From Trueperaceae bacterium (GTDB taxonomy: Bacteria; Deinococcota; Deinococci; Deinococcales; Trueperaceae): a DNA stretch of 64,000 nucleotides. The DNA lies in the NCBI GenBank assembly GCA_965213925.1, contig OZ243927.1, positions 2,016,001 through 2,080,000 of the forward strand, written 5' to 3'. A model generated the notes under the pieces. It made no database searches. It was not told the DNA's origin and saw only the letters and a program-made list of their open reading frames with translations. The translations under genes and the position numbers were made by a program. Positions 7,208 to 9,275 of the stretch are shown here, piece after piece; position 1 is the stretch's first letter; every line of letters begins with the position of its first letter.

Positions 7208-7615
7208 ATGATTCAAGATATCGACAAAGTACAGAAGTCCGAAAGCGAATGGCGCGACGACCTCACCCCCGAGCAGTTTCACGTGCTGCGCGAAGAGGGG
7301 ACGGAAAGGGCAGGGACGAGCCCTTTAGACAAGGAGAAGCGCGAGGGCACCTTTGTTTGCGCGGGGTGCGGTCTGGAACTCTTCACGAGCGAGATGAAGT
7401 TCGACTCGGGGACGGGTTGGCCGAGCTTTTATAACTTTATAGGCGGTCACCTAGAAACCAAAACCGATTTCAAACTCATCTGGCCGCGGACGGAATATCA
7501 CTGTGCACGCTGCGGTGGACATCAAGGGCACGTCTTTAATGACGGACCGCAGCCGACGGGGAAGCGCTACTGCAACAACGGGGTGGCGCTGGAGTTCGTG
7601 CCCGAAAGCATTTAG
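7208..7615 (+). CDS. msrB: Peptide-methionine (R)-S-oxide reductase
   Basis: GTERA, CAGC, KFDSGTGWPSF, CARCGGHQGHVF, RYCNNG. Confidence 0.97.
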   Translation: MIQDIDKVQKSESEWRDDLTPEQFHVLREEGTERAGTSPLDKEKREGTFVCAGCGLELFTSEMKFDSGTGWPSFYNFIGGHLETKTDFKLIWPRTEYHCARCGGHQGHVFNDGPQPTGKRYCNNGVALEFVPESI

Positions 7616-7752
7616 ATTTGTAGCGCTTTGGAAATCTATGTGAAAGCTCTTCGAGCTTGGTCGACTAAAAATCTGCAAAATACCGAATGCAAGCGCCTAG
7701 TAGCCCAACTGAGCTTTGACACAGATACTCAGCAGCTACAAAGGATGCTCGG

Positions 7753-7781
7753 CTGAGAGGACGATGTTCTCTCAGTTTTTT
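7753..7781 (+). terminator. Intrinsic terminator downstream of msrB
   Basis: CTGAGAGGAC-GAT-GTTCTCTCAG hairpin followed by T-tract. Confidence 0.7.
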
Positions 7782-7902
7782 AGTGACCTTCGGCTCGAGC
7801 CTCCGAACGCAAAAGTTTTATACGGGTTCCGGTTGAACACTGCATAAACTTATGGCGAGTCTCTTCCGTTCACAACCGAAATTCGTATTTTTCCAACTCG
7901 TT

Positions 7903-8084
7903 AAGGAGCCATCAGCCGCTAGCGGGAGCGAACTAGCCCCGAAGGGGCGCTCTTTGCCCGTTCTAGGGTCCACGCGACTGCGTATCATGCCGTTGTGACG
8001 TCGCTCGTACGGGCTATTCGTTGATGCTACCACCGGCTGATGGCTCTTTCACTCGGGGCAATTCCCAAAGGAATTACCCCGAAA
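7903..8084. ncRNA. Unidentified structured element (candidate ncRNA, 6S-like fold)
   Basis: 13-bp perfect inverted repeat 7906-7918/8034-8046 enclosing nested stems, plus adjacent hairpin 8053-8082; no credible ORF. Confidence 0.5.
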
Positions 8085-8153
8085 CGGTATGACACAACAA
8101 ATTTCAGCTCTGATCCAGCTAAGAGGTGCTGACGTGGGGATATAATGGTTTTA

Positions 8154-9275
8154 GTGCTCTTGCGAACCTCTTTTTATCTTCTTTTAGTGGGTCTGCTCTT
8201 TGTCTCGGCTGCGCAGGCACAGATCGTCGTGCCCGAATTCAGTACGCGCGGCGACGTGCCTAGCGAGGTCACGGCGCGCTTTTTAGACGCCTTTCGGCAG
8301 CAGCTCGCCGCCCGCACCGAGTTGGAGGTCTCGGCGGGCAGCATCTTCGCGCCGCCGCCTAAAGGGGGCGTGGACCCCGAAGTTGCGCGGGCGGTAGCGA
8401 GCTTAGCGGACAACCGTTACGGGCTCACGGGCGAGATCATCGCCTCGCCTGGCGTCATCAGCGAGGAGACGCCCTATACAATCAACCTCTTGGTCGTTGA
8501 CGCGCAGACTGGACGAACCTCAGACCTCATCAGCGAACCGCTCAGTACGAGAGATTATCTGGGCGCGGTCGCCGAACTCACGAGCGCGGTGAGCGCCTTT
8601 ATCAACCCGGCGAACCCGCTCTCGAGCGGCTCGGCGAGCCTCTTCATCTCCTCGCAGCCGCGTCAGGCGCAGATTCGCATCGACGGCGCGTACGTCGGCA
8701 GCACCTCGGAAGTCGGGCTCATCTCGCTCGCGCCGGGACGCTACAGCGTCGAATTGCGCAAGGCGGGCTTCGTGCCCGAATTGGAGACGGTGGTGCTCGA
8801 GGTCGACCACACCGAATTCATCAATTTCGAGCTGATGCCGATCCGTAGCGGCAGCGTTCAGGTAACGAGCACGCCCGTCGCCGAGGTTTTTGTAGACGAC
8901 ACGCCCGTCGGCACGACGCCCCTCACGGTGAGCGCGGAGCCCGGCGTGCGCACGCTCCGCTTGGAGCGCCCCGGTTTCGTGCCCGAAACGCAAGCGGTGC
9001 GCGTACGCAACTTTTTCGTGAGCCGCGTCTCGGCGACTTTAGAGCCGCGCTCGGGCACGCTCCTCTACTGGACGCCGCCTGCTGGTTTTTCCGTGGCGAT
9101 AGACAGCGAACCCAGAGAGCGCGGCTTCGTCTCCGAACTGTCGCCGGGTCCGCACCGCGTCGAGCTGAGGCGCGGCGTCAACACGATCCGCTTTACACTA
9201 GACGTGCCGGAAACGGGCGTCTATGAGATCGACTTTCAGACGCGCTCACTCGTGCCGTTAGAAGAGGAACGCTGA
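8154..9275 (+). CDS. Secreted PEGA-domain protein
   Basis: Signal peptide (AQAQ); repeated PEGA motifs (ISSQPRQAQIRIDG, VTSTPVAEVFVDD..VGTTP); GTG start 7 nt after TATAAT. Confidence 0.85.
   Translation: MLLRTSFYLLLVGLLFVSAAQAQIVVPEFSTRGDVPSEVTARFLDAFRQQLAARTELEVSAGSIFAPPPKGGVDPEVARAVASLADNRYGLTGEIIASPGVISEETPYTINLLVVDAQTGRTSDLISEPLSTRDYLGAVAELTSAVSAFINPANPLSSGSASLFISSQPRQAQIRIDGAYVGSTSEVGLISLAPGRYSVELRKAGFVPELETVVLEVDHTEFINFELMPIRSGSVQVTSTPVAEVFVDDTPVGTTPLTVSAEPGVRTLRLERPGFVPETQAVRVRNFFVSRVSATLEPRSGTLLYWTPPAGFSVAIDSEPRERGFVSELSPGPHRVELRRGVNTIRFTLDVPETGVYEIDFQTRSLVPLEEER

Follow-up and report, generated by a model that had tools for sequence, protein, structure and literature searches.

The spacer between msrB and a gene for a PEGA-domain protein in a Trueperaceae bacterium contains a strongly folded stretch of DNA, which raises the question of whether it is the gene of a structured RNA or a piece of mobile DNA. 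The initial annotation of the window (the whole stretch of 64,000 nucleotides that was analysed) had favoured a 6S-like RNA transcribed from the minus strand, with a non-autonomous element as the fallback reading. We compared the locus with the rest of the window's own 4.75-Mb genome (G000), with the other two genomes of the same genus (G001 and G002) and with genomes sampled across the family, order and class, among them G206, a member of the family Trueperaceae from outside the genus; individual fetched loci are denoted by L-numbers. In our judgement the element is very likely mobile DNA and not an RNA gene, namely one copy from a family of small, non-coding mosaic repeats that is confined to a single genus and has three nested layers. 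The fallback reading is upheld by dispersed copies and a polymorphic site.

The features first seen at the locus were confirmed. The perfect 13-bp inverted repeat at 7906–7918 and 8034–8046 extends to 19 nt at 89% complementarity (two mismatches), the side hairpin GCCCC-GAA-GGGGC was found, and the inner pair GCCCGT (7956–7961)/ACGGGC (8009–8014) forms in the predicted minus-strand fold. The second hairpin, at 8053–8082, has 13 nt per arm, which are 92% complementary with one mismatch; at the place of this C-A mismatch most other copies of the repeat read GGGGTAATTCC, and judging from these copies the mismatch looks like a substitution private to the window copy. The surroundings were also described correctly. 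On the msrB side (SelR domain) a terminator-like hairpin with a T-run, downstream of the gene at 7751–7777 on the plus strand, ends the upstream transcription unit, and on the other side the gene for the PEGA-domain protein has its own TATAAT (8141–8146, plus strand), which abuts the gene start (ATG at 8145 or in-frame GTG at 8154). Both signals lie outside the repeat, and the region of about 7610–7825, including the 205 bp from msrB to the repeat (7616–7820), is single-copy in G000. Placed between the msrB terminator and the PEGA promoter, the window copy is probably neutral there. We also observed that the TATAAT overlaps the ATG at 8145 and lies 8 nt upstream of the GTG at 8154, and that G001 has the same TATAAT-8 nt-GTG layout without any repeat; the layout in the two genomes suggests that the PEGA mRNA may be leaderless or nearly so. 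A search for related loci seeded with the PEGA protein gave no match.

In order to find out how the element is distributed, we searched for its copies. A 201-nt query yielded 21 matches in G000 and a longer query 22 BLAST segments. In all, the genome holds three near-full copies, two of them at C1:2381534–2381724 (90% identity) and C1:3172615–3172783 (89%), and about 20 fragments that cover different parts of the query. The count of genomic copies, proposed in the initial annotation as a check that would point to a MITE if many dispersed copies were found, therefore came out positive. Searches with a 281-nt composite query retrieved matches in three of 31 related genomes, all of one genus (29, 28 and 34 matches), and in none of the 28 genomes belonging to other genera of the family and order. 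In a class-wide sample three of 201 genomes matched, and the sole one outside the genus, G206, matched over 43 nt that correspond to the innermost layer alone (the mini-element described below); the composite itself was found in no genome outside the genus among the 201. Plasmid records gave no match. The site is polymorphic as well: the orthologous msrB-PEGA spacer of G001 is only ~60 bp long, contains the TATAAT and lacks the repeat, homology to the window resuming at ~8093, while in G002 a different gene lies upstream at the PEGA locus. The reverse case is provided by a full composite of G001 (L010), the flanks of which map to C1:386298–388002 of G000, where the repeat is absent. Literature searches on repeats of Truepera or Trueperaceae, on nested bacterial MITEs and on MITEs in transposase genes found no account of these elements.

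The outermost layer is a MITE-like element of 269 bp (7821–8089, plus strand) with the ends TACGGGTTCCGG and CCCCGAAACGGTA, delimited by family comparison and by the resumption of the native spacer at ~8093 relative to G001. It consists of a left hairpin (7821–7887, plus strand), with a conserved stem and a variable apical part, so that the arm-to-arm distance ranges from 29 to 155 nt among copies; a conserved linker (7888–7903, plus strand) with a family consensus of about TTTCTACTCG, directly after which the central module stands; and a right hairpin (8050–8089, plus strand), recognised by self-complementarity and family comparison, which ends in the right terminal repeat, an inverted copy of the left end. 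The terminal inverted repeats are 12 nt long, and outer elements without the central module measure 86–185 bp. A profile built from 16 copies found in G000 23 full matches without the central piece, 11 left-only and 17 right-only matches. At least 34 outer-type loci are present in this genome, and all 34 examined are intergenic.

A motif scan returned 27 rows, in which the flanks are mostly T-N-A on both sides. After subtraction of two rows without a left arm and three of one compound locus, the N was alike on both sides in 11 of the 22 usable copies against 5.5 expected (binomial P about 0.01), a pattern that fits a 3-bp target duplication that later decays; the flanks of the window copy differ, TTA on the left (7818–7820) and TGA on the right (8090–8092). 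In G000 additional subfamilies of the outer element, whose ends are of the TACGAATTCCGATTGATTC type, were noticed at C1:1107344–1107520, C1:4454540–4454600 and elsewhere, so the superfamily is larger than the 34 tabulated loci. The same genome has solo near-perfect palindromes made of two right-hairpin ends, without linker or left hairpin, at C1:2430869–2430918 and C1:4129358–4129391, which may be minimal forms or remnants.

The central module (7904–8049, 146 nt) is the part that had been taken for a 6S-like element, and comparison with empty outer elements shows it to be an insertion. In these, as at C1:3560830–3560975 and C1:1521395–1521530 of G000, the sequence ...CTCGTTA is joined straight to CACTCGGGG..., that is, linker to right hairpin, and the 146 nt are thus an insert without duplicated bases. 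The module is bounded by its own terminal inverted repeat, the 13-bp closing stem, with a 5' arm at 7906–7918 and a 3' arm at 8034–8046 (13 of 13 bases complementary). Inside it, comparison of modules distinguishes a 24-nt cassette, 'piece X', of which the 5' half (7919–7929) and the 3' half (7967–7979) are split by the mini-element, and a core (7980–8033) common to a short subfamily and containing the conserved CTATTCGTTGATG, which is the sequence described as the unpaired minus-strand bubble of the putative RNA. A regular-expression search for complementary ends found 14 intact modules of 74–141 nt in G000, the window copy being the longest.

Of 18 modules inspected, 16 have at least one outer-element motif (the linker or the start of the right hairpin) beside them; by an internal motif, eight of these 16 are forward and three reverse, and five lack the motif. 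The modules at this fixed site belong to four sequence subfamilies and occur in both orientations, and no target duplication was seen for the central module. The other two of the 18 modules are surrounded by unrelated DNA; one of these interrupts an IS3-type orfB between ...VMDA and LSKRIVG.... The inner parts come and go as well: piece X is unsplit in the modules at C1:4282046 and C1:1226290 and absent at C1:3874074, as it is in the shortest modules, the module copy at C1:1241598–1241650 is without the mini-element, and piece X is also found within long (59–61 nt) forms of the mini-element (L196, L113). The region C1:1240800–1243200 of G000 (L105) is a degenerate IS3-type element, present in a single copy in the genome, that has received at least three small-repeat insertions: a mini-element after YGSPRVH, a 77–79-nt module that separates VMDA from LSKRIVG, and an incomplete module at the edge.

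The innermost layer is a double-hairpin mini-element of 37 nt (7930–7966), composed of the side hairpin GCCCC-GAA-GGGGC and the tail CTTTGCCCGTTCTAG. It has two GC hairpins of 4–5 bp, with CTAG before the first and after the second, and occurs in lengths of 37/38, 41 or 59/61 nt. What had been described as the 3' bubble hairpin of a 6S-like RNA is this mini-element, an optional insert that other modules lack. Its 16-nt tail, with one mismatch allowed, was found 10 times in G000, 14 in G001, five in G002, 24 in G206 and twice in G226, the other 56 genomes of the family sample being at the control level (0–1). In a public one-genome-per-species collection an exact 17-mer occurred 47 times; the full element was present with 11 of these, all in records titled Truepera or Trueperaceae, and the remaining occurrences look like chance. 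On this evidence the mini-element appears to be restricted to Trueperaceae. The near-identical 37-mer recurs in at least six genomes, at more than 20 places whose flanks are unrelated, and no duplicated bases were visible beside the mini-elements in the copies compared.

Outside MITE modules, which hold its other copies, the mini-element lies in transposase genes at 19 of 23 distinct sites, counted after copies with common flanks had been collapsed and taken from match lists, not as a random sample; the four without a transposase assignment are L197 (= L206), L198 (= L199), L205 and L201. The motif search found no mini-element in L203. Among 18 ORF pieces around mini-elements, 14 match transposase-type Pfam domains: Transposase_mut, DDE_Tnp_IS1595, rve with Mu-transpos_C_2, rve, DDE_Tnp_1_assoc, DDE_Tnp_1, rve_2, DDE_3 (four pieces), HTH_21 (two pieces) and the helix-turn-helix part of an insertion sequence (IS) of G206. 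By Pfam domain the hosts are of at least seven kinds (IS3, IS630, IS5/IS4, IS256, IS1595, IS21-like and ISAs1-associated); four sites (L132, L187, an IS630-like gene of G000 and C6:920) were assigned by motif reading alone. The mini-element always shifts the reading frame and is found in both orientations relative to the ORF. In three different IS3-type orfB genes it occupies a homologous site, after YG(S/A)PR(V/I)(H/Y). Two genes were seen to carry two mini-elements each, namely an IS630-type gene (L188; G002 C2:1265816 and 1266414), where they are about 600 bp apart and in opposite orientation, and an rve/Mu-type gene (L112; G206 C4:155559 and 156882), where they are about 1.3 kb apart and in the same orientation. 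We tentatively propose, as a possibility that we hold to be less probable than not, that the mini-element is an independently mobile element of Trueperaceae that inserts without target duplication and whose presence in other mobile DNA reflects either homing or selective retention. If this is true, it would bespeak one of three things: transposon targeting, an insert neutralised in DNA, in RNA or during translation, or a brake on transposition.

One host has multiplied. An IS630-type element of 1116 bp in G206 (L135:1321–2436) is present in about 20 copies of 99–100% identity, of which 18 are complete or almost complete and the others are fragments. Every copy spanning the insert site contains the mini-element, an insert-free copy being absent from that genome, and it therefore seems that the IS multiplied after gaining the insert. 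Within the DDE_3 domain the insert separates ...AVPTRW from SHGRLNLIGAL, with a stop codon after the junction. In a related IS630-type gene of G199 TRWSSKGRLNLIG is unbroken at that place; this gene has its own mini-element elsewhere, and excising exactly 37 nt closes its frame. A search of 60 other genomes of the family with the G206 IS retrieved matches to its 37–42-nt insert only, and no DNA homologue of the element itself. The transposase of this IS is split three ways: an A6G run separates the helix-turn-helix ORF from the segment carrying the DE motif, and the mini-element makes the second break. The IS may have spread by mobilisation in trans, by occasional precise excision, or by frameshifting or bypass. 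Translational bypass of the mini-element was considered and set aside as speculation, no consistent rule emerging across cases: in G206 the frame before the insert is offset from the one after it by a net 38 nt, and one CGC...CGC codon pair could serve as take-off and landing site; in the IS3 case no matched pair of take-off and landing codons was found, and the G199 gene needs the loss of exactly 37 nt.

With the layers in view, the RNA readings can be weighed. In the 201-nt stretch the plus strand folds at -93.3 kcal/mol (z -5.54) and the minus strand at -90.2 kcal/mol (z -5.38), with 0 of 200 shuffles as good for either strand, and the minus-strand fold does have the closing stem, the unpaired AUCAACGAAUA, the side hairpin and the inner stem of a 6S-like layout. 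A 6S or 6S-like RNA that sequesters RNA polymerase would be expected to show just such a closing stem, asymmetric internal loop and inner stem, and its role would be vacant in G000, where RF00013 gave nothing across the whole 4.75 Mb at E up to 10 while control genomes responded. The layout is all that stands of this claim, and we give a promoter-mimic RNA gene scarcely any probability. The unpaired AUCAACGAAUA corresponds to the core motif that is conserved in the central module, the hairpin opposite it is the optional 37-nt insert, the element is multi-copy and modular, and the orthologous site of G001 is without it. No known RNA family matches: Rfam models at gathering score found nothing in the whole 64-kb window, and a permissive scan of 7600–8200 gave only snoRNA-type and tiny hairpin matches (E 2.6 or worse), which we treat as chance. 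The strong predicted fold is explained by the stacked inverted repeats of the nested layers.

A broader possibility is that the copies are functional structured RNAs or control elements at the RNA level, such as 3'-UTR stabilisers, terminators or multi-copy sRNAs, as has been proposed for REP, ERIC and Correia sequences. The initial annotation had expected the RNA idea to fail if homologs showed no covariation, and it is not on this ground that we reject it, since the closing stem covaries: across 20 modules 235 of 260 cells are Watson-Crick, seven are G-T and 18 other, position 10 being A-T in ten modules and G-C in ten, and position 12 being C-G in 12, A-T in four and T-A in two. These were 20 of 21 modules picked by context (16 from G000, four from G001 and one from G002), with the arms located allowing up to four mismatches, which favours pairing somewhat. 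Such covariation is as would be expected of a hairpin-dependent mobile element and would also fit a structured RNA; the REP literature, in the part considered here, infers transcription from similar evidence (PMC3733652). A further point for RNA-level control is the enrichment of copies between convergent genes (12 of 34 versus 16% genome-wide, P = 0.005). Gene context here was derived from a home-made ORF picker based on codon usage and not from a validated annotator (3824 genes, 82% coding); none of the 34 copies in G000 overlaps a predicted gene. Against such a role, copies take no consistent orientation relative to their neighbours, 21 being in the same and 18 in the opposite direction as the gene with the abutting 3' end, and 16 and 13, respectively, relative to the gene with the abutting 5' end. 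Over 24 composites the strand-to-strand difference in fold energy averages 0.7 +/- 7.8 kcal/mol (p = 0.65) and G-U pairs number 99 of 1360 on one strand versus 107 of 1352 on the other, the module occurs either way round, no T-run was found 3' of the repeat hairpins in the window, and the window copy is preceded by a separate terminator and followed by a separate promoter. A search of 7400–8400 found no promoter-like site. The RNA reading is rejected on account of the equal folding of the strands, the either-way module, the orientation and placement relative to neighbours and the lack of a promoter-like site; RNA-level elements strike us as improbable, albeit less so than a 6S RNA. Between these two in probability, and still very unlikely, falls a third possibility, in which the inner layers are not independently mobile and the empty outer elements are precise deletions from an ancestral long palindrome, made mosaic by recombination between copies. 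Long palindromes are prone to deletion, and the nearly constant site of the module, with an outer motif beside 16 of 18 copies, would be in keeping with this. However, four module subfamilies share that site in both orientations, two modules lie in unrelated DNA, one of them within the IS3 orfB, and the more than 20 mini-element sites, spread over at least six genomes, have unrelated flanks.

We therefore return to mobile DNA, and to what might move it. No autonomous IS with the ends of the outer element was found in G000: pairs of outer-type ends 0.5–3.5 kb apart were mostly noise, and the four best candidates contain ordinary genes or unconnected small repeats between their ends, and no transposase ORF. 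The genome has three groups of IS with a DDE_Tnp_1 domain (IS5/IS4-type, 881–995 bp), which were rejected as partners of the outer element as their ends do not resemble the MITE ends. Searches of G000 for the Y1/RAYT transposase (PF01797) and for the TnpB domain (PF07282) gave no matches, on the basis of which an IS200/IS605, RAYT or TnpB origin was dismissed; the usual hairpin-dependent enzymes are thus missing for the two inner layers. In the family, Y1 genes are present in 22 of 61 genomes and in neither G000 nor G002, the Y1-rich genomes G184 (46 genes) and G107 (11 genes) are without the mini-element motif, and around the Y1 genes inspected in G107, G226 and G217 the motif was not found to a distance of about 1.5 kb. 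The sole Y1_Tnp-like match of G001 is weak (E 5e-14; C4:3786234–3786551) and lies within an open frame of 1322 aa, which is unusual for a Y1 transposase. The attC sites of integrons have the consensus cores RYYYAAC and GTTRRRY, and in a by-eye comparison with these cores the ends of the elements did not fit, so this candidate was discarded too.

In the mobile-DNA scenario that we prefer, an outer MITE-like element, bounded by terminal inverted repeats of 12 nt and flanked by T-N-A, would have landed in the msrB-PEGA spacer, most likely moved in trans by cut-and-paste of the DDE type with a 3-bp duplication, in the manner of IS5/PIF-Harbinger-type transposition, the enzyme being a presumed one. 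A module of 74–146 nt occupies the fixed site between linker and right hairpin, in either orientation and without target duplication, and inside the module is the 37-nt double-hairpin mini-element, again without target duplication. A putative recombinase most likely recognises the inner layers as single-stranded DNA folded into hairpins, in the course of replication or repair; the stems kept by compensatory changes and the equal folding of both strands point to this.

The composite can be compared with several known systems. Like the bacterial MITEs Correia/NEMIS, ERIC and Nezha, it is small, non-coding, dispersed and intergenic, has terminal inverted repeats and, in the outer layer, T-N-A flanks that would fit a short target duplication, and its long and short forms are told apart by internal inserts; unlike them, it has no cognate IS that we could find, its inner layers lack target duplication and its nesting is three deep. 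The SNRs of Deinococcus radiodurans, as far as the consulted parts of the sources describe them, are interspersed repeats of 60–215 bp with a mosaic structure, of at least nine types and 295 copies, with none in D. geothermalis (PMC1978522), and the copy number of SNR4 differs between strains (PMC11276467). Set against these SNR descriptions alone, our repeats are alike in belonging to the same phylum, in being mosaic, small and non-coding, and in being present or absent between relatives; the composite itself occurs in no genome outside its genus among 201 of the class. REP/BIME sequences have a GTAG or CGTC tag beside a palindrome of 20–40 bp and, according to the portion of the account considered, are also found inside other palindromes and ORFs (PMC3733652). 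To the same extent, the inner layers resemble REP, BIME and REPIN elements (RAYT) in their short GC-rich hairpins beside a fixed tetranucleotide, compensatory stems, mosaic clusters, lack of target duplication and nesting in palindromes, whereas the tag of the mini-element is CTAG on both hairpins, not GTAG or CGTC, and neither G000 nor G002 has a RAYT. The likeness to 6S RNA (RF00013) is limited to an outline of closing stem, internal loop and inner stem in about 145 nt; the element differs from it in having no model match, many copies, no synteny and no strand preference. Finally, the mini-element is similar to the Rickettsia palindromic elements, mitochondrial 'byp' and the T4 gene 60 gap as a short GC-rich hairpin insert within an ORF, but differs from them in that it always shifts the frame and resides mainly in transposase genes; matched take-off and landing codons were not found for it.

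At the window locus these results remove a false lead, in that there is no new 6S-type RNA for Deinococcota here. Instead, a genus of Trueperaceae carries a mosaic repeat family of its own, which bears comparison with the SNRs of D. radiodurans, long left unexplained. Its layers are separable, as empty, half-filled and filled copies all exist, and inner layers that lack target duplication in a genome without the usual hairpin-dependent transposases suggest an unknown mobilising activity. The bias of the mini-element to transposase genes and its persistence in a recently multiplied IS would, if the pattern holds, bear on how transposition is restrained by bacteria or by the transposons themselves.
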